Part shown: positions 11,932 through 56,487 of the stretch, piece after piece | Numbering within the stretch: position 1 is the stretch's first letter | Layout of the letters: each line of letters opens with the position of its first letter | From: an uncultured Candidatus Bathyarchaeia archaeon | GTDB lineage: Archaea; Thermoproteota; Bathyarchaeia; Hecatellales; Hecatellaceae | Assembly (NCBI GenBank): GCA_964569845.1 | Contig: CAZMUQ010000004.1 | Span: 1 to 61,270, forward strand | Length of the DNA stretch: 61,270 nucleotides | Direction: 5' to 3' | Notes under the pieces: generated by a model | The model's input: only the letters and a program-made list of their open reading frames with translations | Database searches by the model: none | What the model was told of the DNA's origin: nothing | Program-made: the position numbers and the translations under genes

Positions 11932-12738
11932 TTGAGTGAAATTGAAAAAATTAGGGAGTTAGGCTCACGTTTAAGTTTTTACCTTAGACCAAAAACTTTT
12001 CCCTTAGCCATAAAATTTGTTAAAAGTGGAGAATCTATACCAGAAAAAGCTTACAGACCATCAGCCCGCTTTGTTTTTTGTAGAATAATGCTACTTTCAA
12101 GAAGAACCGGCAGGTCATATGTTATTGGCAAGGAGAATATACCATGCTTAGGTGTTGTTATGCTTGGACTTGCAAACTACAGTAAAGATGTTTGGGAAGA
12201 AAGCAAAAAAATGCTCATAAAAGATTTTCTTGTTGGTTGGAGGTTTTATAAGTCTGAAGAAATTGCAGAAAAAGTGATAAACATTGTTGAAGAAGATTCT
12301 CTTCCACCTGGAAGTTTTACGGATGTTATTGTTTCACCTATTGAAAGAACAATTATCAAACCTGATATAGTTGTTGTTTATGGGGATGGAGCCCAAATAA
12401 ATAGGCTTGTTAGCGGTGTTGCTTACGCTGACGAGGAAACACCTTTTATTGAAGCTAAACTTACAAGCCTTGCAGGATGTAGAGCATTATCTAAATGCTA
12501 TAAAACAAGAAAAGCCCAATTTATTTTACCAGGCTATGGTGAAAGATATCAAGGATTTACTGGAGATGATGAGGTTGCTGTAGTTTTTCATATTGAAGCT
12601 TTGCCAAAAATTGTTGAAGGCTTAGAATACACGTTTCGCGGGGGGTTAAGATATCCAACACCTTACATGGTAGAATATAGTTCCCCTGCACCTGAACCTG
12701 AAGAAAAAGCAATTAAGAAGCTTTTAGGCGAATCTTAA
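11932..12738 (+). CDS. DUF169 family protein
   Basis: P.AIKF, FC, PDIVVVYGDGAQINRL, GC, PGYGER pattern. Confidence 0.75.
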   Translation: MSEIEKIRELGSRLSFYLRPKTFPLAIKFVKSGESIPEKAYRPSARFVFCRIMLLSRRTGRSYVIGKENIPCLGVVMLGLANYSKDVWEESKKMLIKDFLVGWRFYKSEEIAEKVINIVEEDSLPPGSFTDVIVSPIERTIIKPDIVVVYGDGAQINRLVSGVAYADEETPFIEAKLTSLAGCRALSKCYKTRKAQFILPGYGERYQGFTGDDEVAVVFHIEALPKIVEGLEYTFRGGLRYPTPYMVEYSSPAPEPEEKAIKKLLGES

Positions 12739-12758
12739 AAAGTATAGCAAAAAATTCG

Positions 12759-13875
12759 TTATTGAAGCATCCTAATTTTTTCAACCAATTCCTCCTTACC
12801 TTTAAAATATTTCCTTACAGGTTCAAGGATTCTTATTAATGCTTCAGCAACACTATTTTTTAAGTCCAGTGGATGAAGTTTACCATCCATATATACCTTT
12901 TCAAGTTCACTAATACTTGCAAACTCAACTTTACCACCATATTTTTCTTCTCTTTCAACAATCAGCTTCCCTTCCTTAGGAAAAATAATGTATTTTGCAA
13001 TCTCCATAACAGGATTACCAAAAACCTCTCTTGCAGGACAATAAGCAGCCAAAATTTTCTTTTTAATTTCCTCAGGTTTATCATGAATAAATATACAGTT
13101 TTGAGGCTTACTTTTAGACATCTTTGTTCCAATTTGAATGTTTAATGTTTCATCTTCATCATAAACAACTTCTCCATACTTTTCCACGGGACCAGAAAGC
13201 CCAGCTAAAAGGTGAGTATGAATACAAATAGGCTTCTTTCTTTTAAGCTTCTCTGCAACATCTCTTGCAAGCATGTGGGCTTTACGTTGGTCCATCCCTG
13301 CACATGCACAATCAACATCTAACCTAAAAATATCCGTAACCTGCATACAAGGATAAAATAACCATGCTGTTTCAACATCTTTTTGGCTTAAATCTCTACC
13401 CATAATAGGTAGAGACCTAAGAACCCTTGAAATTTTAACTTTTTTTGCAACAGTTAAAACCATATCCCAGTATTCTGGATTTTCCATAAGCTCTGAAGCC
13501 CAAACATATTTAACTTTTCCAGGTGTTAAACCTATGGATGAGAAAGCTTCAATAAAGTATTTTCCACACTCCCTAATAGCATCCATATTTCCATTAAATT
13601 TATCGTTTATCCATGCATGCCAATCAGCAAGAAAAATAGTAAAGTCAAATCCGGCTTCAACCATATCTAAAATCTTATAACCACAAACAAGTCCAGTACC
13701 TATATGCACCACTCTGGGCGGTAAACCATTTAAGGTTTAACCGCTATCCAGAAGGTTCAAAACCCCAGTAAGCCTTAGGCTTAGCTTCACACTCTAGAAG
13801 TCTACGTAACTCCTCCCTAGTTACAACCTCCTCCAAATTTCTTTCTACAAGTCTTAACTTTGCATCAACATCCAC
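12759..13875 (-). CDS. tyrS: Tyrosine--tRNA ligase split by a 34-nt intron (exon 1 13875-13746, exon 2 13711-12759; 360 aa after splicing)
   Basis: Exon 1 begins GTG after GAGGAGGTG and encodes MDVDAKL...AYWGFEPSG; exon 2 encodes VHIG, YPCMQVTD, GMDQRKAH, KMSKS; exons total 130+953=1083 nt, in frame. Confidence 0.95.
13712..13745 (-). other. BHB-type archaeal intron in tyrS mRNA
   Basis: Minus strand CTGG-AT^A-GCGGTTAAACC-TTAAAT-GGTTTACCGC-CCAG-AG^T: central 4-bp helix CTGG/CCAG, two 3-nt bulges, 10-bp inner stem; splicing gives GGA TTG GTG CAT. Confidence 0.88.
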
Positions 13876-14029
13876 CTTAAAGCACCTCCTCAACCTACAA
13901 CTTAAATATGTAGAGTACAAAGATACCAATTAACCTTTTACCCCTAAACGCTGCCACTCTTAAGCCTTCTAACATCAAGTTTAGATAGGAAATATTGTAC
14001 ATTAAACATTTAGCAAGAAAGGGGTAAAT

Positions 14030-14108
14030 GCCTGGTATGAGAGAGCTTAGCTGAGGTGAGCATAAAGCTCAACAATGAGGCTAAGTGTTAGTTATCCAGG
14101 CGACATCC
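14030..14108 (+). ncRNA. Box H/ACA guide sRNA (single hairpin with K-turn)
   Basis: Lower stem GCCTGG/CCAGGC followed by G-ACA; pocket TATGAGAGAG / TGTTAGTTAT; upper stem CTTAGC/GCTAAG; K-turn CTGA...AATGA with 3-nt bulge. Confidence 0.8.
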
Positions 14109-14223
14109 CCCTTGAAACCCTATTTAACCTTCCATCCTCAACAAAAATAGGGAATAGTTTAACAGTTAGATTTAAAATCAAGTTTAGAGTTAACTGAAGT
14201 ATAACCTCTATTCAAGCGGAAAA

Positions 14224-14988
14224 ATGATCGACATTCATTGTCATCTTACATTTGAAGACTACGATAAGGATAGGGATGATGTTATTAGGGATGCTAAAAA
14301 AGTCTTAAAAGCTGTTATTATAAGCGGGGTTGAACCTAAAGATGCTGAAAAAGCTTTAAACTTAAAATCTAAATATCCAGATTTTATATATGTAAGTTTA
14401 GGCCTTCACCCTATACATGTTTCAGAATTGTCAGATAGTCAAATAGATGAGTATATCAACTTCGTCAGGAGAAATAGGGAAAAAATTGTAGGTATAGGTG
14501 AAATCGGGTTAGACTACCATTGGGTTAAGAATCAGCATGAGATTATAAGAACAAAAAATGTTTTTGAAAAGTTTTTAAATTTAGCTGAAGATTTAAACCT
14601 ACCAGTTATTCTTCATTTTAGAAATGCATTAGAAGAGGGTTTTAGAATTATCTTAGACAATAAGGTTAAAAAAGCTGTTTTCCACTGTTTTACAGGTAAA
14701 CGTAAACTTGCACACGAGATAGTTGAAAAGGGATACTATATTTCAGTGGCACCAAACATCTTTGGAAGTAAGGATATAAAAAAAGCTGTTAAAGATATAC
14801 CCCTAGAAAAAATTTTAACTGAAACTGATTCACCTTTCCTTGCTCCAGGTGGTGGAAGAAACATTCCTCAGAATGTTAAGTTTGTTATCGAAAAAATTGC
14901 TGAAATAAAAAGGATAGATTCTTCAGAAGTTGAGAGAAATACTACTAAAAATGCTATAGAAATTTTTGATCTTAACATAAACCTTTAA
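14224..14988 (+). CDS. tatD: TatD-family hydrolase/nuclease
   Basis: DIHCH, GLHP, GEIGLDY, VILH, FHCF, ETDSP. Confidence 0.92.
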   Translation: MIDIHCHLTFEDYDKDRDDVIRDAKKVLKAVIISGVEPKDAEKALNLKSKYPDFIYVSLGLHPIHVSELSDSQIDEYINFVRRNREKIVGIGEIGLDYHWVKNQHEIIRTKNVFEKFLNLAEDLNLPVILHFRNALEEGFRIILDNKVKKAVFHCFTGKRKLAHEIVEKGYYISVAPNIFGSKDIKKAVKDIPLEKILTETDSPFLAPGGGRNIPQNVKFVIEKIAEIKRIDSSEVERNTTKNAIEIFDLNINL

Positions 14989-21006: not shown

Positions 21007-23898
21007 CTATTCTTCAATAAATATTGCTGGACGGTACGGCTCCGCAATCTGAGATTTACCTTTTGGATCTACTTTAGCTTTATCATCCTCTCTAAAAACA
21101 TAAACTAAAGCGTTAAACTCTTTTTCAAAAAATTTTTTAGCATCCATTAAAACTTCATACTCATCTATAAAGCCAACTTTTAATCTTTTACCTGCAACAT
21201 CTTCAGGCATCTTTAAGATATCCTCAACAATTTTTTTAATGTACTTAGCAGCTAAAGCACCCTTCTCCTTTATTTCAAGGGAAGATATAAGATTTTTAAT
21301 TATTCCTTTATTAAGACTTTTTTCTAAACGTTTACTTAAAACTTCAAGGTAAATCTTCCATTTCCAATCTGATGCCACATAGTAGAATATTCTTTTAGGT
21401 TTAACTTTTATCACTTTAACAATATCCTTTGTATCCTCAAAAAGATTTTGAATAAGTTCTTCTGAAACCTCATCTTTAAGGCTAGGTTCAACTTCACCTC
21501 TAGGCCATCTAGCAGTTGAAATGAAACCTTTTTCACCAAATTTTTCCCAAAGTTCCTCAGCTAGGTGAGGCATGAAAGGGGCTAAAATTCTAACCCATAC
21601 ACTTGTAGCCTTTAAAATAGCATTTCGATTCGGTTTTTCAACTCTCCTAAGGTACCATCTGAAACTTCTCCAAACTTCGTAAAGGGCTGTTTCTAAAGCT
21701 GTTCTTGTTTTTAAAACTTCAATATTCTTGGAAACCTTTTCCACGTGATGATAAATAGATGTTAAAAGCCATCTATCCATATGTGTTTCATCTTCACGAG
21801 TATCCCTAATTTCCCTAATTTCCAAAAGGAAGTTGTATAAGGCATTTAAGTTGTTTCTAATCTCTATAAGGCTTGTATTTCTCCAATTTGGGTCATCCAT
21901 GTCTTCAGCCGCAAGCAGAACAGTACACCTTGTTATATCAGCCCCAACATCATCAAGAGCCTGCCTTAAAGGAATAAAGTTCCCCTTTGATTTATGCATC
22001 TCTTCTCCTTCAACCCTCATAAAACCATTTACACCCACAGCTTTAGGCCAATGTTCAGGTGGGAAAAGTGCTGCATGATGAAAAATGTAAAATGTTAGAT
22101 GGTTTGGTACAAGATCTTTCCCAGAATTTCTTAAGTCTATTGGATACCAGTACAAGAATTCTTTGCGAATATCGCTAATAAGGTTAGCTGGTATCCCTAT
22201 TTCTTTTGAAATTTTCTCAGCATCTCCTAGTCCATAAAAAACATAGTCAAAAAAGTTTTCAGTTAACTGTTCAGCTTTTAACCCGTACATTCTAATATGC
22301 TTATTTACAGTGTAGAAAGCTGGATAAATTGTTGAGTCACTAAGTGTTTCAACAATCCAATCTTTTGCCCAAGGTAAGGGAGTTCCAAGCCCTGTTTTTC
22401 TTGTACATGCCCAATCATGAAGCCAGTCTATAACATCCTCAAACCATTTTCTAGCTTCTTCAGGATAAATCTTCATTTTTGATAAAAGATTCTTCGCCTT
22501 CTCTTTCCATTCAGGGTTAGAATAGTTTAAAAACCATTGATCTTGAAGAACTTTTACTACGCATCGTGTTGTACATCTACACACAACTTTTTCAGGCAGC
22601 TCATACATAACATCAAAAAAACCTTTATCCTTAAAATCTTCAATCAATTGTTGCTTAACCCTTGAGATAGGCTGATTAGCATAATTTCCGCAATTTTCCT
22701 TTAAAATTCCGGTATGAAACTCTTTTTTATAGATAATTTTTGTTGCTTCCTCAGCTTTGGGGTCACCCTGATCCTTAATATTCATTTTACTAACAATTTC
22801 AATAGCTGGAAAATCTCCAAAACCCTCAACCTTAACTATTGATATAGGCTTAATATTCTTAACATCCTCAACATCAATGTTAAATTTTTTAAGTAGTTCA
22901 GGATTTTCTTGTAAATCTTTTAGAGCAAGCCAATCATAAGGTGCATGGGCTGGAACACTATAAACAACACCTGTAGCATTATCAGGATCTACAAACCAGC
23001 CTGGTAGGATAAGAAGATTCCGCCCATTAACAGGCTCCATGCAAGTTTTACCTATAAGTTCTAAACCTTTAATTTCATCTAAAATTTCAACTTTTTTTAA
23101 TTGTTCTTTAAGTTTTTCAGCAGCTTCTTTACTTATTATCCATCTTTCTCCATCAACTAGAGTTTTAACATAAGTAGCATCAGGGTTTATCCATAAATTT
23201 GTAACACCAAAAATAGTTTCAGGTCTTAAAGTTGCGGCTGGAAGATAAAAGTCATTAAACCTAAACTTTACAAGAGTATATTCTTCAGGATATACTCCTG
23301 AACCTTCAAGCCTATCAGCTTCACCTGTTGGACTTTCACATTTAGGGCACCAAACAACTGGGTGAGTCCCCTTAATAACGTAGCCTCTCTCTTTAAGCTT
23401 TAGATATTGCCATTCAATAAATTTACTAAAAGTTGGACATAGAGATGATGTATGAAATTCCCTTCTCCAATCTATTGATAAACCAAGTTTTTTAACAGCC
23501 TCCCTATTATACCTGGTGTAGTATTCAGCCATGTAAGCTGGATTAACAAATTTTTTAAGCTCATCTTCAGGAACACCATCAACCTCCCTTAAAGCTTGAA
23601 TAAACTTTTCATCCCCAAGCTTTATTCTTTCAGAGGCTCCTGCAACAGTTTCTCCAGTCCAATGCCAAGCCCATGGAAAAAGAACATTAAAACCGCACAT
23701 ACGCTTATATCTAGCATAAACATCAACCCTTGCAGCTGAGTATGCATGTCCAACATGAAGCGGCCCACTCATGTAGGGGAAAGGAAAAGTTACAAAGCAT
23801 TTAGGCCTACTCCAATCAGGGTCAGCTTCAAAAATTTTTGCTTCAAACCACTTTTTCTGCCATTTTTCTTCAATAGCTTTAAAATCAACTTTTTTCAC
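21007..23898 (-). CDS. leuS: Leucine--tRNA ligase (archaeal type)
   Basis: FPYMSGPLHVGH, TLRPET, SGKDL..NHL, MHKSKGN. Confidence 0.97.
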   Translation of the reverse strand: MKKVDFKAIEEKWQKKWFEAKIFEADPDWSRPKCFVTFPFPYMSGPLHVGHAYSAARVDVYARYKRMCGFNVLFPWAWHWTGETVAGASERIKLGDEKFIQALREVDGVPEDELKKFVNPAYMAEYYTRYNREAVKKLGLSIDWRREFHTSSLCPTFSKFIEWQYLKLKERGYVIKGTHPVVWCPKCESPTGEADRLEGSGVYPEEYTLVKFRFNDFYLPAATLRPETIFGVTNLWINPDATYVKTLVDGERWIISKEAAEKLKEQLKKVEILDEIKGLELIGKTCMEPVNGRNLLILPGWFVDPDNATGVVYSVPAHAPYDWLALKDLQENPELLKKFNIDVEDVKNIKPISIVKVEGFGDFPAIEIVSKMNIKDQGDPKAEEATKIIYKKEFHTGILKENCGNYANQPISRVKQQLIEDFKDKGFFDVMYELPEKVVCRCTTRCVVKVLQDQWFLNYSNPEWKEKAKNLLSKMKIYPEEARKWFEDVIDWLHDWACTRKTGLGTPLPWAKDWIVETLSDSTIYPAFYTVNKHIRMYGLKAEQLTENFFDYVFYGLGDAEKISKEIGIPANLISDIRKEFLYWYPIDLRNSGKDLVPNHLTFYIFHHAALFPPEHWPKAVGVNGFMRVEGEEMHKSKGNFIPLRQALDDVGADITRCTVLLAAEDMDDPNWRNTSLIEIRNNLNALYNFLLEIREIRDTREDETHMDRWLLTSIYHHVEKVSKNIEVLKTRTALETALYEVWRSFRWYLRRVEKPNRNAILKATSVWVRILAPFMPHLAEELWEKFGEKGFISTARWPRGEVEPSLKDEVSEELIQNLFEDTKDIVKVIKVKPKRIFYYVASDWKWKIYLEVLSKRLEKSLNKGIIKNLISSLEIKEKGALAAKYIKKIVEDILKMPEDVAGKRLKVGFIDEYEVLMDAKKFFEKEFNALVYVFREDDKAKVDPKGKSQIAEPYRPAIFIEE

Positions 23899-26651
23899 TT
23901 TTTAAATCCCCCTAATTCCTCACATAAAATATTTTCAACATTTTCTAAAGCTTCTAAGGCTTTTTCTGGATGCTGACTTCCACCCTGACCAAAATCTTGT
24001 TTTCCTCCTCCACTTCCACCAGCTAGCTTAGAGATTTTTAAGGCAATTTTACCTGCATGCAAACCAAGTTTTAAGGCTTCCTTTCCAACCATAACAATAA
24101 CCCTAACATTTTTTTCACCTAAAACTACGAACACCGAAACCAAGTTCGGTTTTGCCTTTGTAAGCTCAACTAGTGTTTTTATCGCTACTTCAACATCAAC
24201 TAGTTTTGATGCGTACTTAAGAAGCTGTATCCCTTTAAACTCCTTAATATTAGCTGACAATGTTTCAGCAAGCTGTCTAGCGATATTTTCCCTCAATTTT
24301 TCAACATTTTTTCTTAAACCTTTAATTTCATCAATAAGTCCTTCAATAGATTTTTCAATATCATCAGCAGAACATCCTAAAATTCTGCTTAAACTTTTAA
24401 ATCTAGAATCAACTTGCTGAACGTATTCAACTGCTTGAGGTCCAACAGTAAAATGTATCCTTTCAACACCATCCTGAATTCTCTCAGTTTTAACAATCTT
24501 TATTAAACCAATTTCACCAGTAAATTTACAATGAGTACCTCCACAAGCTTCAACATCCCAATTTTCAACCTCAACAATCCTTATCTCCCGACCTGGAACA
24601 ACACCACCCTGATAAAGTCTAAAGCCGTATTTTCCTTCAGCAACTTCTCTTGGAAGCCAAAAAGTTTTTACTGGAACATTCTTAGCTACAATATCATTTG
24701 AAAGCTTCTCAATTTCTTTAACCTGCTCATCAGTTAACCTTAAATAATGGGATATATCAAGTCTTGATCTTTCAACACCCTTTAAAGCTCCTGATTGCCA
24801 AACATGATCCCCTAAAACTTTACGTGCAGCTCCAATTAAAATGTGAGTTGCAGTATGACTTCTCATCAAGCTTTTTCTCCTTTCCCAATCTATAACTCCT
24901 ACAACATGGCAACCTACATTTGGCAGTTCTCCCTCAACCTTATGAAGAATAACATTTTTTACTTTTTGTACATCAATAACCTTAGCCTCCCCATTATTCC
25001 ATTTTAGAATTCCAATATCAGGAGGCTGCCCCCCACCTTCAGCATAAAAACATGTTTGATTTAAAACTACGTAACCTTCCTTGAAAACCTTTAGAACTTC
25101 AGCTTTAAATTCCTTTAAGTATGCATCCTCATAGTACAGTAATTTTGTTGGAGGAAGTTCCTCAACTTCTCCTTCAAATCTTAAAGTAACCTCATCTTTA
25201 ATAACCTTAGGTTTTTGAAATTTCTCGTGCATCTGCACAATTTGGGTGTAAAAGTCTTCAGGAATCTCTACATTGACCCCAAATTCCTCAGCAACTTGTG
25301 AAACATAATCTGGAGTTAAACCATGAGAATCATAAAGCATAAGAAGACTCTTTGTAGAAATCTTACCCTTTTCCTCCTCAATTAACCTTTTAATAATAGT
25401 CTTACCTTTTTGCATTGTTTCTTTAAACCTTCTTTCTTCAACATCAACCATATCAAGAATAACTTCACTTTTCTCAAGATACTCAGGAAAACTTCTAGAA
25501 ACTTCCTTAATCTGAAAATCTACAAGCTCTATAATGGGATAGTTTAAGCCTAAATAATGCATATTTCTTAAAATTTTTCTTATAAGAAGTCTTGCAAGAT
25601 AACCTGCACCCATATTTGATGGAACAACACCATCTCCAAGCATAAATACAAGTGTTCTAGAAAAATCAGCAATAGCATAAGCTGTTTCTACAGGTAAAAT
25701 TATCTTTTCAAGCTCCTCAACACTTAAACCAAGCTTTCTTGAAACATTTAACCTAAACTCCTTAAGGCTAGATTTACCTTTAAGGCTAAAAGAACCTGCA
25801 AGCTTAGATATTTCAGCAAAAATCTTTTTTTCTGGAGGTTTAATCCCAGCTAAATTATAAAACTTTCTTAAGAAGGAAGAAAAAATAGCATCATATACTG
25901 TAGGTGTTTGATTTGTAAGCCAAACAATCCTTTCAAGCCCGTAACCAGTATCAACAGTTTGAATTTTTAATGGTATAAGCTTATCTTCAGCTTGCTTATA
26001 ATGCATAAATACAAGTGTTGCAACTTCAATTCCTCCAATAACTACTTCAAAATCTTCTCCAGCATTTCCTCCTCCACTCCACATATCCTCAATAAAATTT
26101 ATTTTTTCAGGTTGAACCTTAACTTCCTCAGTAAAAAATCTAAAACAGTATTCTACTGTTTCATCATTCCAGTAAATCTTTTTATCTGGATAGTTAAAAG
26201 CATGATGAGCCATCATTTCAAACTCTGTTAAATGTCTACCAGACTTACCTACAAGGTCTATATCAGTAAACCTTATACATGGTTGGGAAATTGTTAAAGG
26301 ATTTGAGGGGGGAGGAATTACTCCATCCGTAACCCAAGGTTGGAAATCGTAAATTGAGGCCCCAACAAGATATACATCATCCCTCCACCTAGCTACAACA
26401 GGATATTTCCCTATTCTTACATGGTTGTTCCTCTCAAAAAATGATAGAAATTTTTCCCTAGCATTATCAATGTTAAGCTTTATACTAGTTGGAGGTTCAT
26501 CAATAAAGGTATAGGTTACACATGGTTGGTCTCCGCAATAATTAGCATCAGGGTTAAGTGTCCAAAAGTTTCTTCCGCACGAGATACATTTTTTCCTAAT
26601 ATACCCTTTTTCCTTAAAAAGGGAAACCTCATATATTGAGGTTAAAGTCAT
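23895..26651 (-). CDS. alaS: Alanine--tRNA ligase
   Basis: CISCG Zn site, HLTEFEMMAHH, DTGYGLER, HTATH and ACGGTH editing motifs, C-terminal GGG..GQGG; real ATG at 26651. Confidence 0.97.
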   Translation of the reverse strand: MTLTSIYEVSLFKEKGYIRKKCISCGRNFWTLNPDANYCGDQPCVTYTFIDEPPTSIKLNIDNAREKFLSFFERNNHVRIGKYPVVARWRDDVYLVGASIYDFQPWVTDGVIPPPSNPLTISQPCIRFTDIDLVGKSGRHLTEFEMMAHHAFNYPDKKIYWNDETVEYCFRFFTEEVKVQPEKINFIEDMWSGGGNAGEDFEVVIGGIEVATLVFMHYKQAEDKLIPLKIQTVDTGYGLERIVWLTNQTPTVYDAIFSSFLRKFYNLAGIKPPEKKIFAEISKLAGSFSLKGKSSLKEFRLNVSRKLGLSVEELEKIILPVETAYAIADFSRTLVFMLGDGVVPSNMGAGYLARLLIRKILRNMHYLGLNYPIIELVDFQIKEVSRSFPEYLEKSEVILDMVDVEERRFKETMQKGKTIIKRLIEEEKGKISTKSLLMLYDSHGLTPDYVSQVAEEFGVNVEIPEDFYTQIVQMHEKFQKPKVIKDEVTLRFEGEVEELPPTKLLYYEDAYLKEFKAEVLKVFKEGYVVLNQTCFYAEGGGQPPDIGILKWNNGEAKVIDVQKVKNVILHKVEGELPNVGCHVVGVIDWERRKSLMRSHTATHILIGAARKVLGDHVWQSGALKGVERSRLDISHYLRLTDEQVKEIEKLSNDIVAKNVPVKTFWLPREVAEGKYGFRLYQGGVVPGREIRIVEVENWDVEACGGTHCKFTGEIGLIKIVKTERIQDGVERIHFTVGPQAVEYVQQVDSRFKSLSRILGCSADDIEKSIEGLIDEIKGLRKNVEKLRENIARQLAETLSANIKEFKGIQLLKYASKLVDVEVAIKTLVELTKAKPNLVSVFVVLGEKNVRVIVMVGKEALKLGLHAGKIALKISKLAGGSGGGKQDFGQGGSQHPEKALEALENVENILCEELGGFKK

Positions 26652-26661
26652 CAAGCCCCCT

Positions 26662-27804
26662 TTATTCGCCAAAAAAGAATAATGCTGAATAAAGATAAAT
26701 GTTAGCCGCATCAACAACAGAATTAAGATATACATACTCATCAGCTGAATGTTCATTTCCACCCTTAGGACCAATAGTTACCGTAGGTATTCCTGCTCTA
26801 ACAACAAGGTAATTTTCATCTCCGACACATCTCCCAATAGCTTTTTTTGGAAATCTACCTTTAACTATTTTACAAGCTTTTTCAACAGCCCTAATTATTC
26901 TACTACCCCTACTACCTAATATGTAAGGTTTCATGTATGGAGTTGGTCTCTTAAAAACCTTAACTATAACTTTAGACTTCAATTTAAGTTTTCCAGCTAA
27001 GCCTTTAATCTCCTTTAAAAAAACTTCTCCAGATTCTTTTAAGCCAAGTTGTTTATCAACAACAATTCTACAAGTATCTGGAGTTGATAAAAATTCTGTT
27101 CCACCATTTATGGCTAAAACTGTAAGACCTCCCCCACCCTTCAACTTTCTAAGGGATAAAACAATTTTTGAGGCTTCAACAACAGCATCAACCTTTCCTT
27201 TTAAGCTTGAAACATGAGAACTTTTACCCTTAACAATAATATCATAAACTACACGACCAAAACGTCCAACTTCCATTCTTAGAACGCCTGTAGGTTCAGC
27301 TGAAATTGCAGCATCAATCCCTCTAAGTTTCCCAAGTCTTATAAGCTTATCACAACCTCTAGAATAAAGCTCCTCATCACTTGTTAAAGCAACAAAAATA
27401 TTTCCATGAATCTTTTTAAGATTTGTAAGCCTCTTTAAAGCCTCAAAAACAGCTGTTAAGCCTCCTTTCATATCACATGAACCAAGTCCATACATTTTAC
27501 CACCAATTATTTTAGGTTTAAATGGAGGAAAAGTCCAACCTTCAACAGGTTTAACAGTATCAAGATGGCCATAAAAAAGAAGATTTAAACCTTTAGAATT
27601 AGCTTTATAATAAGCAAAAATCGTAGGTCCACAACCTTCAACAAGTATTCTTTCAACCCTAAAACCGTAAGCTAAAAGTTTCTCTTCAACATAATCTGCA
27701 ATTTCATGCTCGTTTCCACTTACACTTGGGATTGCAATAAGCTTCCCTAATGTTTGCTTAACCTCATCAACACTAATAAGCTTAAATTTATCCAATTCAT
27801 TCAA
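26662..27804 (-). CDS. M20 family metallopeptidase (ArgE/DapE-like)
   Basis: GHLDTV, GLGSCDMKGG, SDEE, AEPT, GNEHSADE. Confidence 0.88.
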   Translation of the reverse strand: MNELDKFKLISVDEVKQTLGKLIAIPSVSGNEHEIADYVEEKLLAYGFRVERILVEGCGPTIFAYYKANSKGLNLLFYGHLDTVKPVEGWTFPPFKPKIIGGKMYGLGSCDMKGGLTAVFEALKRLTNLKKIHGNIFVALTSDEELYSRGCDKLIRLGKLRGIDAAISAEPTGVLRMEVGRFGRVVYDIIVKGKSSHVSSLKGKVDAVVEASKIVLSLRKLKGGGGLTVLAINGGTEFLSTPDTCRIVVDKQLGLKESGEVFLKEIKGLAGKLKLKSKVIVKVFKRPTPYMKPYILGSRGSRIIRAVEKACKIVKGRFPKKAIGRCVGDENYLVVRAGIPTVTIGPKGGNEHSADEYVYLNSVVDAANIYLYSALFFFGE

Positions 27805-35736: not shown

Positions 35737-36876
35737 TTAAGGAATTTTACATTTAAAAACTTTTGTTGGAAGATTTCCATGCATAACAGTTTTTTCTTCA
35801 ACATCTTGAACATTAAGTTCTTTTAAAACACTTTCAAACTCAACCCATGCATTAGTAATCAAGGTTAACGTTGTATTTTCTGAAATTTCTTTTACAGAGA
35901 ATAGGAAATCCTTGTAAAGTTTTTCTATAGCTCTCCTTCTTAGGCTTCTTACACCGTAGGGAGGATTAACTATGACATGTTCAGGGTTAAAATTAACATA
36001 CTTTTTTAGTTTTCTAGCATCACCAAGAATAAAAACTATATCATCATAAACACCAGCAGATTTAGCATTCATTACTGCTCCATTTAAATGTTTAGAAGAA
36101 ATGTCAATACCATAAACCTTTAAATTTTCAACCTTCTTCTTCCTAAACTTCTCACATATTTTTTCATATTCTTCTTTATCAAAAAATTTTAACTTAAAAA
36201 ATGCAAAATCATGTTTAAAGCTATTTAGGGGCTTTTGCTTAGCCATTAAAGCAGCTTCTATAGGTATTGTTCCGCCACCACACATAGGATCTAAAAGAGC
36301 TTGATTAAATTTCCAACCACTATACCTTATAAGGCAACATGCCAAACTTGTTTTTAATGCTGCTGGATGACTATAAACCCTATAACCACGTCTATGTAAA
36401 GATTCCCCTGTTGTATTCAAACCTAAGATAAATTTTGAATTTTTAACAAGAGCATAAAACTCTACATCAGGATTTTTAAGGTTAACTTTTAACCTTACAT
36501 TGTATGCTTCTAAAAAGCTTTCTATAATTGCTTTACCCACAATAGCTGCAACATCAAGGCTTGTAAAAGTATGAAAACCATGCCTTTCAGCTCTAACAGC
36601 AAAAGATTGGTTTGGATTTATAATCCAACCGTAGTCGATTCTTCTAGTTTCACGATAGATGTCATCCAAATTTTTAAACTTTAAAATTCCTAAAACAAGG
36701 AAAACTTTATGGAGACACCTACCATTAAGGTTTAATACATAAATAGCATTAAGATTTGAGCTAAAGAAAACTTTTCCAACATCAGGTTCAACTTTAACAC
36801 CTAAAATCTCCTCAATTTCTCCTGCAGCAATATCTTCAAAACCTGTTATAGTTGTAGCCATAAAGTTAAAATTCAT
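35737..36876 (-). CDS. trm14: THUMP-domain tRNA m2G6 methyltransferase (Trm14-like)
   Basis: TTITGFEDIA, SFAVRAER.G.H, NTTGESLHRRGYR, HPAALK, DPMCGGGTI, NPPYG. Confidence 0.88.
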   Translation of the reverse strand: MNFNFMATTITGFEDIAAGEIEEILGVKVEPDVGKVFFSSNLNAIYVLNLNGRCLHKVFLVLGILKFKNLDDIYRETRRIDYGWIINPNQSFAVRAERHGFHTFTSLDVAAIVGKAIIESFLEAYNVRLKVNLKNPDVEFYALVKNSKFILGLNTTGESLHRRGYRVYSHPAALKTSLACCLIRYSGWKFNQALLDPMCGGGTIPIEAALMAKQKPLNSFKHDFAFFKLKFFDKEEYEKICEKFRKKKVENLKVYGIDISSKHLNGAVMNAKSAGVYDDIVFILGDARKLKKYVNFNPEHVIVNPPYGVRSLRRRAIEKLYKDFLFSVKEISENTTLTLITNAWVEFESVLKELNVQDVEEKTVMHGNLPTKVFKCKIP

Positions 36877-36985
36877 GGAAAAAACCTCTGCAAGGCTAAA
36901 CTTTAGATTTAAAGGTAAATGTTAAATTTAATGTTCACCCAATTAGAATATAACAATAAAAGATAAGGATTTTATGGTAGGTTTT

Positions 36986-37516
36986 ATGCGTTGTGAAGTT
37001 TGCGGAAAACCAATTCAGGGGAAACCTTACAGAATAATAATTGAGGGTGCAAAACTTACAGTATGTGAAGAATGCTCAGGATACGGCTCGCCGATAACAT
37101 GGGAAAAACCAGTCAAAAAAATTGAAACTAAACTTCAAACTAGAAGAATTAGCGGAACTCAAACAGATTTTGATGAAGATTTTATGCTAGTTGAGGATTA
37201 TGGTTTAAAGATTAAAAATGCAAGAGAAAAACTTGGTTGGTCTCAGGAAGAATTAGCATCAAAAATGAATGAAAAAGCATCATTTATAAGTAAAATTGAA
37301 ACTGGCAAGGTTATTCCAAGTTTAGCTACTGTTAGAAGGTTGGAGCATGTGCTTAAAATTAAGCTTACTACCAAGGCTCCTAAACCTTTAAAGTTTGAAG
37401 AGTTTAAGCCTAGATTCGATGAAAGGCTAACAATAGGCGATATAATTTCAACCTCTCTTACACGAGGTAAAGGTAAAAAAGGTGGGGAAACTGAAAGTAG
37501 TTCTAGTGGAACGTAG
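36986..37516 (+). CDS. Multiprotein bridging factor aMBF1
   Basis: CEVCG...CEEC Zn ribbon plus HTH (IKNAREKLGWSQEELA), TIGD tail. Confidence 0.92.
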   Translation: MRCEVCGKPIQGKPYRIIIEGAKLTVCEECSGYGSPITWEKPVKKIETKLQTRRISGTQTDFDEDFMLVEDYGLKIKNAREKLGWSQEELASKMNEKASFISKIETGKVIPSLATVRRLEHVLKIKLTTKAPKPLKFEEFKPRFDERLTIGDIISTSLTRGKGKKGGETESSSSGT

Positions 37517-38759
37517 ACTTCCTGGTGAAAAAAGTCTTTTACATGAACTTAAAATTCTAGCTGAAACTGTTGGATACGAGGTTGTTGGATATTTAAGTCA
37601 GGTTAGGTATCCAAGTTCAAAGTATCAGATTGGCAGTGGTAAGGTTGAAGACCTTGCAAAAATTGTTAAGGAAACAGGTGCCGAAAGGGTAATATTTGAG
37701 AATGAACTTAAACCTGTTCAAGCCTATAATCTTGCTAAAAAAACTGGTGTTGAGGTTATAGATAAGTTCCAACTTATTCTTGAAGTTTTTAGTAATCATG
37801 CATCAACAAGGGAAGCAAAACTTCAAATAGAGCTTGCAAAACTTAAATATGAGCTTACAAGAGCAAAAGAGAAAGTCAGACTTGCAAAACTTGGCGAACA
37901 GCCAGGATTTCATGGACTTGGAAAATATGAAGCTGATGTTTATTATGAAGCTATAAGAAGAAGAATTTCAAATATTGAAAAAGAGCTTCAAAAAATTAGA
38001 GTTGAAAGAAGAATTAAGCGTGCTTTAAGAGCAGACTTAGGATTTCCAACAGTTTCTCTTTGTGGTTATACTGCTGCTGGAAAAAGTACACTTTTTAATA
38101 CTCTTACTGGTGAGAATGTTAAAATTTCAAATAGTGTTTTTACAACACTTTCAACAAAAATTTCAGCTGTAGATTTTGATGGTAAGAAAGCTTTACTTAT
38201 AGATACCGTAGGGTTTATTGATGGTTTACCTTTAACTTTAATTGAGGCATTTAAATCAACTCTTGAAGAAACAATTTATTCAAATCTTATTATAGTTGTT
38301 GTTGATTGTAGCGAGGATGTTGAAGAAGTTAAAAGAAAAACTAAGTGCTGTTTAGATGTTTTAAAGGAAATTGGTGTTATTGGAACACCGATTGTAACTG
38401 CTTTAAATAAAATAGATCTTGCTAATAGTATAAGGGTTAAAGAAGCTGCAAAAAGTATATCCAGTATAGCTTCAAATATTGTCCCAATAAGTGCACTTAG
38501 AAAGATTAATATCGAAAGTCTTAAAGAAGCTGTTGCTAAAAACTTAAGAAATTTTGTTCAATTATCCTTACAACTACCACTAAATTCTGAATCTCTTTCA
38601 CTCCTCTCAAAAATAAGGAGATTTTCTACAGTAGTTAACCAAGATTTCCATGAAAACATAATACTTGTTGATGTTAAGTCCACAGAACATTTTGCAGATA
38701 AAATTTTAGGTAAAGTTGAAGATCTTGGTGGACGTGTAATTGAGGTTATAAAAGTTTAA
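37482..38759 (+). CDS. hflX: GTPase HflX
   Basis: [35 protein letters not shown]. Confidence 0.95.
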
Positions 38760-39291
38760 TAACTTGTTTACCACGAGGCGTAGGATTAATTTTAAGTTTT
38801 GCATTTTTAAATTCTTTTGTTAACTCTTTACCTTCAAAAAATCTATCAAGAAAAATAGCTAAACTTGCACACTCAGAGTGGGGTTGATTACTAACAGCAA
38901 CATTAAAATCAGAAACATCGTTAGAAAAAAATTCTCTCGGAACTTTTTGACTTCCAATAATTACTAAAATATCTTTACCTGTAGCTTTAATTCTCTCCAT
39001 AACATCACTACAACCAATATTTTCCCCATAAGCGGTAAGATGAACAACAATCCCACCTTCACTTCTCCATTTTTTAACAACCTCTCTCCAAGGTATTCCC
39101 ATTTCGAAAAAGAATGGCCCGCCCCAAATTTTTACAACCTTTTCAACAGTTCTCTTAATAGACTCATCATTAACATCAGACAAAATCATGCCATCAGCAC
39201 CAAGCGCACGAGCAACTAGGGCTACATGTGAAGTTAACCTTTTATCTCTTTCAGGCCTATGACCCCAACGTAAAACTACAACTTTAACCAT
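38746..39291 (-). CDS. trm56: tRNA (cytidine(56)-2'-O)-methyltransferase
   Basis: [40 protein letters not shown]. Confidence 0.95.
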
Positions 39292-39341
39292 AACCCACCT
39301 AACTAAACTTAAGGTAAAAATGAAAAATAAAATTAGGGTGT

Positions 39342-39680
39342 TTAAGTTATCTTTAAACCTGGAGGAGCATCTCCTTCGACAGTTACAAGGTAAGGTTTAT
39401 CATTTACTGCTGCTAGTATCATCCCTTGAGATTCTATTCCCCGAATCTTTTTTGGTGCAAGATTTGCAACTACAACAACGTTTTTACCAAGAAAATACTC
39501 TGGCGGATAGTACTCTGCTAAACCTGCAACAATTTGTCTAATTTCACCACCAATATCAACTTCAAGTAAAACTAGTTTTGTTGAATCTTTAACCTTTGAA
39601 GCTTTTAAAACTTTACCAACCCTTAAATCTAGCTTATTAAACTCCTCCATAGTTATGTATTGACTTCCACCTTTACTCAT
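39342..39680 (-). CDS. Stand-alone tRNA-binding OB protein (MetRS-C/Trbp111/CsaA family)
   Basis: [32 protein letters not shown]. Confidence 0.9.
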
Positions 39681-52271: not shown

Positions 52272-52340
52272 CAGTCTTCAACCCTTAAACAACAAGAAGA
52301 AGAGGAAGGCAAAAAAGTTAACTATTTAGAAAAAGGAGAA

Positions 52341-52570
52341 GCTAACCCCCTCTGGGTCTTGGTTGGGGGTAATTTACCGGCTTCCGCCTGGCTCCCGTCT
52401 ACACCGGTAAATTTCCCCACCCATCACAGTTACACCCAGGCGGGTTTGCTTGGGGTTTCCGAGCCCAGCCCCCAAGCCAAACTAGACGGGATGTAACTGT
52501 GAGAGGGGCTTGTGCCAGCCAACATAAAAATGCTGGCTGAACACAAGACCAAGCTTACCTGGAGGTTAGC
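52341..52570 (-). ncRNA. Unassigned highly structured RNA with terminal BHB-like stem and two pseudoknots
   Basis: GC-rich island in an AT-rich genome; eight helices of 6-12 bp identified by eye; pyrimidine/T tract follows on the minus strand; strand inferred from G-U pairs and BHB polarity. Confidence 0.72.
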
Positions 52571-54546: not shown

Positions 54547-55398
54547 TTGAGGAGGATAGGAGTTTTTTATGATGAAACTCTAGGCTTAGAAGGTTACCCT
54601 ATCCTTAAGGATAGAGTTAAAGCTGGAATTGAAGGTTTAAGGGAAGAAGGCTTACTGGAGAAAATTCTAATTTTTAAACCTATACAACCATCAGAAGAAC
54701 TTCTTAAAACAATCCACTCTGAAGGGCTGATTAATGCAGTTAGAAAAACAAAATACTATAAAGCTGCACTTCTTTCAGCTGGAGGAACAATTTTAGCTGG
54801 TGAAAAAGTTTTTTTAGGTGAAATTGATAATGCATTTGTTTTTACAGGTACAGCTGGACATCATGCAGGTATTGATGATTTTTGGGGTTTCTGTTATTTT
54901 AATGATGTTGCACTTTCAATCTCAAATTTAAGGTTGAAATTTAACCCTAATCTTAAATTTTCAATCTTAGATACAGATAGCCACCATGGGGATGGAACTA
55001 GAGATATTTTTAAAACTGATAGTTATGTTCAGCATGTTTGCTTCTGTAACCTAGATGAAACTTCAACTGATGAATTAAAAGTTGATATTTCAGTTCCATC
55101 AAGCATTTCTGATGAAGATTATGTTAAACTTGTAGAAGAAAACTATTTTCCAAGATTAAGAAACTTTAAACCTGACATGGTTTTCTGGCATTTTGGTTAT
55201 GATACTTATAAGGAGGATTATGGTTCAAGAGGATTAACTGAGAAATGTTTTCTAGATTTAACTAGGAAAGTTAAAAATGTTGTTGATGAAGTTTGTAATG
55301 GAAAGCTTATTGTTGTTCTTTGCGGAGGTTCAAACAGAAGATTTGCAAAGAGTATTATTCCTAAGCTTATTAGGATTTTAGCTGAGATTGAGGGATGA
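54547..55398 (+). CDS. Compact histone-deacetylase-family protein
   Basis: GHHA, GFCYFND, DTDSHHGDGT, GYD; CGGS in place of GGY. Confidence 0.85.
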   Translation: MRRIGVFYDETLGLEGYPILKDRVKAGIEGLREEGLLEKILIFKPIQPSEELLKTIHSEGLINAVRKTKYYKAALLSAGGTILAGEKVFLGEIDNAFVFTGTAGHHAGIDDFWGFCYFNDVALSISNLRLKFNPNLKFSILDTDSHHGDGTRDIFKTDSYVQHVCFCNLDETSTDELKVDISVPSSISDEDYVKLVEENYFPRLRNFKPDMVFWHFGYDTYKEDYGSRGLTEKCFLDLTRKVKNVVDEVCNGKLIVVLCGGSNRRFAKSIIPKLIRILAEIEG

Positions 55399-56487
55399 TT
55401 GTTGGGCAATCCTGTAGGATTTGTTTATCATGAAGCATACGAAAAATACTTTTTCGGTGAAGAGCATCCTTTTAAGCCAATAAGAGGTAAACTCACCTTA
55501 GAAATTCTTAAGCAGCTAAATGTTTTTAATAGTAAAGCTAAGATTTTTGAAGCTAGACCAGCTTCTATTGAGGAGTTACAATTAGTTCACACAAAAACAT
55601 ACATTGAATATGTAAAAAGAAGGTGTGGTGCAGATTTAGGCTACCTTGATTATGGAGATACACCTGCAAGAAAAGGTGTTTTTGAAGGCGCATGTTGGAG
55701 GGTAGGAGGAACAATTAGGGCTGCTGAGCTAGTTATGGAGAAAGTGGTTTCTCATGCATTTAACCCTGGTGGAGGGTTACATCATGCAAAAGAAAGCTCC
55801 GCTGCAGGTTTTTGTGTTTTTAATGATATTGCTGTAGCTACCAGGTTTTTGCAAAAAAAGTTTAATGTTAAAAGAGTTGCAATAGTTGATGTTGATGGTC
55901 ATCATGCTGATGGAACACAACAAATATTTTACAATGAACCTATTCTCACAATTTCAACTCATAGGTATGATGGAATATTCTACCCTGGAACAGGTAAAAT
56001 TGATGAGGTGGGGATTGGAGAAGGTTATGGTTACAGTGTAAATATACCATTACCTATTGAAGTTGATGATGAAACATACCTTTACTGTTTTAGGGAAGTA
56101 GTTGAACCTTTAATTAGGGCTTATAAACCTGAGGTAATTATAAGCCAGTTTGGGGTTGATGGACATTATCAGGATCCACTTGTAGGTTTAGCCTTAACAA
56201 CAAAAACATACATTGAGGTTGCTAAAAGTCTTCATAATTTAGCCCATCAATTTTCAAATGGTAAATTAATTATTGTTGGTGGCGGCGGATATGATGTTAA
56301 AAATACTGCTAGATGTTGGGCTTTAATGTTTATAACTATAGCTGAAGTTGAAGTTAAAAATGAGGAATATGATAAACTTAAAGATAAGGTTGAATTTAAA
56401 AAAGATGAGAAAAAATTTCTCCTCATTAAGAGGGTAGTTGAAGAATTAAAGAGGAAAATTTTCCCTATACATAGATTAGAGGTGTAA
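55399..56487 (+). CDS. acuC: AcuC-like Zn-dependent deacetylase
   Basis: HPFKP.R, YGDTP, GGLHHA, GFCVFND, DVDGHHADG, GVDGH..DP, GGGGY. Confidence 0.92.
   Translation: MLGNPVGFVYHEAYEKYFFGEEHPFKPIRGKLTLEILKQLNVFNSKAKIFEARPASIEELQLVHTKTYIEYVKRRCGADLGYLDYGDTPARKGVFEGACWRVGGTIRAAELVMEKVVSHAFNPGGGLHHAKESSAAGFCVFNDIAVATRFLQKKFNVKRVAIVDVDGHHADGTQQIFYNEPILTISTHRYDGIFYPGTGKIDEVGIGEGYGYSVNIPLPIEVDDETYLYCFREVVEPLIRAYKPEVIISQFGVDGHYQDPLVGLALTTKTYIEVAKSLHNLAHQFSNGKLIIVGGGGYDVKNTARCWALMFITIAEVEVKNEEYDKLKDKVEFKKDEKKFLLIKRVVEELKRKIFPIHRLEV

Follow-up and report, generated by a model that had tools for sequence, protein, structure and literature searches.

A 34-nucleotide (nt) insert that interrupts the tyrS gene of an uncultured Candidatus Bathyarchaeia archaeon is read here as an archaeal bulge-helix-bulge (BHB) intron, lying within the coding sequence and removed by tRNA-type splicing; comparison of sequences gives this reading a probability of roughly 85%. 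The gene, which encodes tyrosyl-tRNA synthetase (TyrRS), lies on the minus strand of a 61,270-nt stretch of contig CAZMUQ010000004.1 (assembly GCA_964569845.1), and this whole stretch is referred to as the window. The insert carries a stop codon and in addition shifts the reading frame between the two exons, and its excision (13745 to 13712) yields an open frame of 360 amino acids (aa) reading GFEPSG-L-VHIG. The predicted parts of the gene are as follows:

13883 to 13889, minus strand: Shine-Dalgarno-like GGAGGUG, 8-14 nt 5' of the tyrS GTG start, read from the sequence
13746 to 13875, minus strand: tyrS exon 1, GTG start, 43 codons (MDVDAKLRLVERNLEEVVTREELRRLLECEAKPKAYWGFEPSG) and the U of the junction Leu codon
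13712 to 13745, minus strand: intron of 34 nt, AGCGGTTAAACCTTAAATGGTTTACCGCCCAGAG (= AGCGGUUAAACCUUAAAUGGUUUACCGCCCAGAG), with an in-frame UAG directly after Gly43
12759 to 13711, minus strand: tyrS exon 2, UG of the junction Leu codon, then VHIGTG and onwards, with the stop codon at 12759-12761

Exon 1 could be aligned to solved TyrRS proteins from residue 1-2, and relatives begin at a homologous TTG or GTG; the GGAGGUG upstream would function as a Shine-Dalgarno sequence. In the list of open reading frames (ORFs) the downstream part appears as an ORF of 317 aa (12759 to 13712) with the N-terminus VHIGTGLVCGYK (VHIGTG), and exon 2 was alignable to TyrRS structures up to the C-terminus, with Pfam PF00579 found on the database copy. 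The spliced 360-aa product matched NCBIfam NF006330 (tyrosine--tRNA ligase) over residues 1-357 with 455 bits (cutoff 220), and a full-length match to this model with an intact HIGH-type signature was obtained for the spliced product only. Its junction was free of gaps against the TyrRS of A. pernix, P. horikoshii and A. fulgidus (E = 5e-107 to 1.5e-78), the top structural match being PDB 2cya (E = 5e-107). At the junction ...UCU GGA U and UG GUG CAU... together encode Ser-Gly-Leu-Val-His, and the closest intron-less homologues read GFEPSG[L/M]MHLG at the same site. An earlier note on this DNA, made from the letters of the sequence, had described a split tyrS with a 34-nt insert at 13712-13745 that bears a TAG and shifts the frame; the coordinates proved exact on the minus strand, and the observation is correct because the spliced product restores the frame, the TyrRS match and a gap-free junction. 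The note had placed the insert inside the HIGH motif. It lies instead just before that signature, with the junction codon two codons upstream of the His.

The geometry of the insert and its flanks was then assigned to the following elements of a BHB motif:

13752 to 13753, minus strand: 5' strand (UU) of the outer helix h, joined to G13710 and G13709 by two G-U pairs only; here the motif is weak
13748 to 13751, minus strand: 5' strand (CUGG) of the central helix H, exonic, made up of CU from Ser UCU and GG from Gly GGA
13745 to 13747, minus strand: 5' bulge AUA, unpaired in every minimum free energy (MFE) fold, predicted cut U13746/A13745
13718 to 13744, minus strand: inner helix h' and loop in the MFE fold, GCGGU(U)AAACC - UUAAAU - GGUUUACCGC
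13714 to 13717, minus strand: 3' strand (CCAG) of the central helix H, intronic
13711 to 13713, minus strand: 3' bulge AGU, placed by geometry, predicted cut G13712/U13711

Two 3-nt bulges (AUA and AGU) thus lie on opposite strands with the 4-bp CUGG/CCAG helix between them, which is the arrangement that defines a BHB, and the order of the strands is that of a canonical pre-tRNA intron. The inner stem is strong (10 bp with one bulged U in the MFE fold), while the outer helix consists of just two G-U pairs and is outcompeted in MFE folds, for which reason the window copy is regarded as a relaxed motif. The fold and the geometry agree with the 10-bp stem, the CTGG/CCAG helix, the ATA and AGT bulges and the weak U-G, U-G outer side given in the earlier note.

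The same insert site was examined in 171 sequences (170 loci and the window), 161 of which could be scored; relatives were gathered from a protein search, species-representative genomes and JGI metagenomes, and are the best hits of these scans. An insert was present at the same site in 26 of the 161 scorable loci and absent from the other 135, and all 26 fell within the Bathyarchaeia-type tyrS group, metagenome-assembled genomes (MAGs) named Candidatus Hecatellales included. The closest tyrS relatives in the protein search were likewise from Bathyarchaeia; several of the closest have records of 314-327 aa starting MHIG or MHLG, and their DNA shows the same interruption. A relative at 89% identity carries a 33-nt insert with one loop base different. 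From independent assemblies, 19 distinct insert sequences were recognised on the basis of the motif and its immediate flanks (20 with 30-nt flanks); the comparison with relatives, which the earlier note had suggested, supports its proposal. Insert lengths were 24, 29-37, 41 and 53 nt, with frame classes 0, 1 and 2 represented by 5, 7 and 7 of the 19. After splicing by the BHB rule every one of the 19 variants reads GFE[P/C/S]SG[L/M][M/V]H[I/L/V]G.

The structural elements were equally regular. Each of the 19 distinct sequences has a central helix paired at 4/4 positions and an inner helix with 4 or more bp in a row, and the bulges follow the consensus A[U/C/A]A (bulge 1) and A[A/G/C]U (bulge 2). 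Inner helices are highly varied among relatives (GCGGUU.., GCUGAG.., GCAAGCG, GUGAGCG, GUGGAC..). The outer helix is 3-5 bp in most alleles of the GFECSG/GFESSG clade, where the Cys or Ser codon supplies the pairing; it reaches 5 bp (GUGUU/AAUGC), a full canonical hBHBh' motif, where the Cys codon is UGU. The window's clade has the Pro codon CCU at that position and an outer helix of 2 bp only.

Covariation was scored on a gap-free, bulge-anchored alignment (A1; per side 6 nt of outer helix, 4 nt of central helix, 3 nt of bulge and 7 nt of inner helix). It was observed that 87.5% of the alignment cells were paired, compared to 31-46% when the 3' partner was slid by 1-3 columns. Changes on both sides were found in 8 of 16 pairs, 6 of the 7 inner-helix pairs were compensated, and none of 500 shuffles reached a covariation score as high as that observed. 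The central helix is paired throughout (100%); its single change is in locus L087, where UCU/CCAG has become UCC/CCGG (U-A to C-G), a synonymous exon change from UCU to UCC that is matched by an intronic change from A to G. From these alignments it appears that the structure has been kept in evolution through compensatory changes, as a BHB.

Selection is also visible on the exon side of the helix. Among the 20 distinct intron alleles the Ser-Gly codons are UCU-GGA in 19 and UCC-GGA in 1, whereas the 70 distinct intron-less Bathyarchaeia alleles use 19 other combinations of Ser and Gly codons, UCU-GGA occurring in 0/70. The junction codon, which takes one base from bulge 1 and the following two from exon 2, is UUG, UUA or CUA (Leu), and AUG once. 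Between intron-bearing relatives the ratio of non-synonymous to synonymous substitution rates (dN/dS) in exon 1 was ~0.1 (last 36 codons), and exon 1 is therefore taken to be translated in its frame.

A number of observations weigh against the reading as a BHB intron. The outer helix in the window's clade comprises merely two G-U or A-U pairs, and unconstrained folds favour a helix of 5-6 bp, with UCUGG/CCAGA in the window copy and UUCUGG/CCAGAA among relatives, which absorbs the 3' bulge; when variants were folded under the BHB constraint, the structure was 2.5-11 kcal/mol less stable. In the MFE fold of the window copy UCUGG pairs with CCAGA, the 3' bulge is absent and A13713 tends to pair with U13752, and on this account the 3' site is considered relaxed. 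Cleavage there would therefore require an enzyme able to accept a relaxed motif or to bring one about. A loose BHB pattern (4-bp central helix, inner helix of at least 4 bp, outer helix of at least 2 bp) is also frequent by chance, with 452 and 709 matches on the two strands of the window against 335-431 per strand in five shuffles. As the intron alleles are related by descent, the shuffle control overstates their independence, and its count should not be read as a probability; despite this kinship, the slid controls and the variety of pair types observed point the same way as the covariation score. Finally, a Pfam search of the window's 64 ORFs, save the tyrS pieces and a few of the shortest, found neither EndA nor RtcB.

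The local fold taken alone is modest (z-score = -2.3; 3/200 shuffles fold equally well), and given this and the common chance matches the BHB motif is not significant by itself. Ten fixed pairs in random sequence would be expected with a frequency of (6/16)^10 ~ 5e-5 by our own estimate. The motif is significant in that the cuts fall exactly where protein homology demands them and in that it is conserved with covariation in relatives.

In the proposed mechanism, the exonic CUGG of the pre-mRNA would pair with the intronic CCAG, with the AUA and AGU bulges alongside, stacked on the 10-bp intronic hairpin. The splicing endonuclease EndA would cut after the second nt of each bulge (U13746/A13745 and G13712/U13711), and an RtcB-type ligase would join ...UCUGGAU to UGGUGCAU..., creating the UUG (Leu) codon. 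The intron of 34 nt would be released, probably as a circle. The predicted junction in spliced RNA is CCUUCUGGAU followed directly by UGGUGCAU, also written CCUUCUGGAU followed by UGGUGCAUAUAGG, and the predicted junction-spanning tryptic peptide of the spliced TyrRS is AYWGFEPSGLVHIGTGLVCGYK. Unspliced mRNA would give a 43-aa peptide only, with UAG after Gly43, and on this mechanism active TyrRS would depend on splicing because the unspliced message ends there. The rule applied, a cut between the second and third bulge residues, is that described for cbf5 and tRNA introns (PMC2738675), a source which also bears out the cleavage rule and the cbf5 parallel that the earlier note had invoked; in tyrS it leads to the 360-aa GFEPSG-L-VHIG frame which the note had predicted. 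EndA and RtcB are present in all circular or near-complete archaeal genomes examined, Bathyarchaeia included (PMC12918454), and BHB-dependent circular 23S rRNA has been found in all archaea studied, canonical BHB motifs lying at the circularisation sites (PMC12918454, 2026). By analogy with what has been argued for cbf5, a 3' site that is thermodynamically relaxed, most of all in the window's clade, suggests a broad-specificity endonuclease.

Among other explanations, the one that survives best is a split gene, in which a 43-aa N-terminal peptide and a 317-aa body (starting V/M-HIG) are translated apart and assemble non-covalently, the hairpin being intercistronic; it was considered improbable. 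Split essential genes are known in some archaea, such as Nanoarchaeum. Both ORFs are conserved and under purifying selection, and exon 2 starts with GTG here and ATG in most relatives, which is where gene callers begin the protein. The Met or Val before the His is ancestral, however, and has not evolved as a start codon, since intron-less relatives also read LMH. Exon 2 is preceded by no Shine-Dalgarno-like sequence, in contrast to the GGAGGUG at exon 1, and the break would lie not at a domain boundary but within the Rossmann fold, two residues ahead of the catalytic His. Separate translation would not predict exact BHB geometry in 19/19 variants, compensation in the helix or frozen UCU-GGA codons, nor that cutting at the BHB invariably restores a Leu or Met codon together with the exact spacing of intron-less proteins.

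Translational recoding, by ribosomal bypass or frameshift over the insert in the manner of T4 gene 60 (GGA take-off codon, adjacent UAG, hairpin), was judged very improbable. GGA-UAG followed by a stable hairpin is indeed present here and in most relatives, but there is no matching GGA or conserved GGN landing codon, the 3' ends being CCAGAGUGG, CCAGAAUGA, CCAGACUAA and CCAGAAUAA. The adjacent stop is also missing in some alleles (GGA AAG CGG UAG in L087, GGA CAG UGA in alleles with an ACA bulge), and no one frameshift rule would suit inserts that range from 24 to 53 nt and represent every frame class. The geometry of a 4-bp helix with 3-nt bulges, and its covariation, are not features of bypass signals.

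It is still less probable that the gene is dead, or that the insert is an artefact of assembly or sequencing, with TyrRS supplied by another copy. Such an explanation would account for the broken frame and the stop after Gly43, and as the view is limited to a 61-kb window, a second tyrS could lie elsewhere in the genome. The same interruption recurs, however, in many independent JGI, ENA, NCBI and Logan assemblies, which disposes of the assembly artefact that the earlier note had named as a refutation; both exons are open with dN/dS ~0.1, and the insert evolves by compensatory changes. Five intron-bearing MAGs (L007-L010 and L018) had one tyrS locus each among the best 80 hits in species-representative genomes, down to 46-50% identity, which is weak evidence against a second tyrS given that the MAGs are incomplete and that lower-ranking hits fall outside these 80.

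A group I or II intron or an intein was rejected on the grounds of an insert of 24-53 nt that is out of frame or bears a stop, and a tRNA or other known RNA on the grounds that no Rfam family reached its gathering score in the window and ARAGORN found 0 tRNA genes at the insert. Mimicry of the tRNA(Tyr) anticodon arm was dismissed as well: CUGGAU placed at positions 32-37 gives the anticodon GGA, not GUA, and BHB geometry by itself accounts for the 7-nt loop that remains once the intron is removed. A dispersed repeat or mobile element was rejected because, in the 685 kb of sequence examined, the core C[UC]GGA[ACU]AG...CC[CU][AG]GA.U conserved among the inserts occurred 26 times, every time at tyrS.

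The window was also scanned for further BHB introns with a filter that retained matches whose removal joins long open frames. This left 28 candidates, and those besides tyrS were rejected, being spans of 20-157 nt with helices of only A/U and G-U pairs or with little internal pairing. They lie mostly between or at the ends of neighbouring genes, the flanking genes being complete and unrelated by Pfam; an example is 26618-26759, between a peptidase M20 gene and alaS. No second split gene or ORF-restoring compact BHB was found in the 61-kb window by the BHB scan, the ORF-joining filter and Pfam, and the expectation in the earlier note of more such introns thus found no support within it.

A neighbour-joining tree was built from the exon-2 proteins. 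The window's clade (Ca. Hecatellales-like) has the intron in 12/12 members, and in other Bathyarchaeia-type clades its occurrence is patchy (L113; L018 and L107; L166; L160; and L155, L157, L158, L159 and L161, which are adjacent in the tree). Among the scored loci it was present in none of those labelled Heimdallarchaeota or other Asgard, Thermoplasmata, Theionarchaea, or Desulfurococcales and relatives. The intron-bearing P0026 (L087) shares 78-79% identity with five intron-less proteins that form a group. The simplest reading of these sequences is that the intron would be old within Bathyarchaeia, with one gain followed by several precise losses. A history of gain and loss has likewise been inferred for the cbf5 introns, which that of tyrS echoes.

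In the window (11932-14988) tyrS is flanked by genes for a DUF169 protein and a TatD-family hydrolase. The tyrS of several intron-bearing relatives (L001, L005, L006 and L090) adjoins pheS/pheT and genes for prephenate dehydratase/dehydrogenase, and in L088 and L089 it adjoins trpA/trpB, an aromatic amino-acid neighbourhood unlike that of the window. One locus binned as 'Krumholzibacteriaceae bacterium' (L019, DATKLC010000064.1) has a Bathyarchaeia-type tyrS, likely through a binning error. Locus L004 differs at positions 1-420, upstream of about codon 10 of exon 1, from the otherwise identical L002 and L003, possibly because the assembly is chimeric or the region has been rearranged.

The closest known parallel is the cbf5 intron of Crenarchaeota (Aeropyrum, Sulfolobales, Desulfurococcales; Watanabe 2002, Yoshinari 2006, Yokobori 2009 = PMC2738675), which is also a short BHB-type intron in a coding sequence. 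Each interrupts the gene of an essential RNA-related enzyme at or beside codons for catalytic residues, the cbf5 intron being of phase 1 and inside the codon of the catalytic Asp (PMC2738675); both have a relaxed or unconventional BHB, predicted cuts between the second and third bulge residues, a patchy distribution and a record of confused gene predictions. The tyrS intron differs in its gene and in its lineage, which is Bathyarchaeia / Ca. Hecatellales and not Thermoprotei, and is thus analogous to the cbf5 intron rather than the same; in addition, the tyrS motif of one Bathyarchaeia clade is a full canonical hBHBh' whose outer helix has 5 bp. Spliced cDNA and in vitro cleavage by EndA have been demonstrated for cbf5, whereas the tyrS intron is read from comparison of sequences. 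The 5'-untranslated region (UTR) intron of HVO_1309 in Haloferax volcanii (PMC7714728; PMC10485636) is likewise an mRNA substrate of the archaeal splicing endonuclease, and its removal appears to matter for expression; unlike the tyrS intron, it lies in a 5' UTR, involves the homodimeric alpha2-type enzyme of a euryarchaeon and has experimental support.

The pre-tRNA intron at 37/38 (hBHBh', Marck & Grosjean 2003) has the same strand order, running on the 5' side from the outer helix through a 4-nt helix strand and a 3-nt bulge to the inner helix, and on the 3' side from the inner helix through a 4-nt strand and a 3-nt bulge back to the outer helix; it is likewise small, and splicing leaves a 7-nt loop that the outer helix closes. 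The tyrS intron differs from it in having an mRNA host without a tRNA body and an exon half constrained by Ser-Gly-Leu codons. RtcB is also the ligase in metazoan XBP1 splicing. HAC1/XBP1 splicing (IRE1 with tRNA ligase or RtcB; PMC13149111) resembles that proposed for tyrS in being independent of the spliceosome and in changing the frame of a coding mRNA, but IRE1 recognises twin stem-loops rather than a BHB and acts in a regulated stress switch.

Prior to the HVO_1309 5'-UTR case, cbf5 was the only additional archaeal mRNA BHB intron reported (PMC7714728, 2020). No report of a tyrS BHB intron was found in the full-text literature, a search that mostly does not reach subscription journals, so that a prior report is possible. 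tyrS would be the second archaeal coding sequence reported to need tRNA-type splicing, after cbf5; what is new is the gene (tyrS) and the lineage (Bathyarchaeia), the mechanism being already known.

Elsewhere in the window, an OB-fold/SSB-like gene and a DUF402 gene are 553 nt apart, and the space between them contains a GC-rich island (52310-52570, probably on the minus strand) with 54-58% GC compared to 34% for the window. Its fold has three hairpins enclosed by a long closing stem (-127.6 kcal/mol; z-score = -6.4 for the minus and -4.6 for the plus strand), no Rfam family reached its gathering score there and only chance-level hits were obtained at E < 1, and no BHB was found at the base of the closing stem (~52310-52570). 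The predicted fold suggests that the island is probably an undescribed structured non-coding RNA. leuS (963 aa) and alaS (a mechanical ORF of 959 aa) are adjacent on the minus strand at 21007-26774 with a 4-nt overlap, and both are uninterrupted. The alaS ORF extends ~100 codons upstream of its Pfam match and overlaps a peptidase M20 gene by 112 nt, for which reasons its true start is probably internal. A tRNA-related cluster at 35737-39680 contains a THUMP/UPF0020 methyltransferase, an HflX-like GTPase, aTrm56 (a tRNA 2'-O-methyltransferase) and a free-standing tRNA-binding-domain protein, with no splicing endonuclease or ligase among these genes. Two adjacent histone-deacetylase-family paralogues (283 and 362 aa) at 54547-56487 are preceded by a 375-nt gap; the first leaves the first ~75 profile positions unmatched and has an N-terminus of its own of matching length, and does not look split.

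The exon-2 ORF of the window belongs to a 90%-identity cluster of 14 members from JGI, ENA, NCBI and Logan, all of 315-317 aa except one of 275 aa; some are named tyrosine--tRNA ligase at NCBI (e.g. MCX8176125.1), with the interruption left unflagged. Public tyrS records (the P0001 and P0015 clusters, and P0011-P0013, P0026, P0075 and P0096) are of 314-327 aa with the first ~45 residues missing, as gene callers start them at the Met or Val just before HIG. The earlier note had expected such genes to be mis-annotated as pseudogenes; public records instead give a truncated 316-aa 'tyrosine--tRNA ligase'. Truncated TyrRS records distort completeness estimates, marker-gene phylogenies and metabolic reconstructions of the MAGs concerned.

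Few cases of this kind have come to light in more than 20 years, namely one coding sequence (cbf5) and one 5' UTR (HVO_1309), the two that reviews list (PMC7714728, PMC10485636), and the present case concerns an essential aminoacyl-tRNA synthetase of the globally abundant, uncultured Bathyarchaeia. Its 19-20 natural variants would allow the sequence and structure requirements of the enzyme to be read from evolution, the UCU-GGA and BHB signature provides a template for finding further such introns, and sister alleles with and without the intron (78-79% identical) offer a natural system for the gain and loss of archaeal mRNA introns. It can be speculated, as an unlikely extension of the intron reading and in line with the coupling to EndA and RtcB raised in the earlier note, that the intron is a retained checkpoint, by which TyrRS synthesis would depend on or compete for the tRNA-splicing capacity of EndA and RtcB. 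The presence of the intron in all sampled Hecatellales-like members, and the strict retention of the bulges and central helix over deep divergence, would fit such a role; the same pattern of retention is expected if precise intron loss is merely rare. If the intron were a checkpoint of this kind, the capacity of these archaea for tRNA charging would be tied to the maturation of their tRNA and rRNA.

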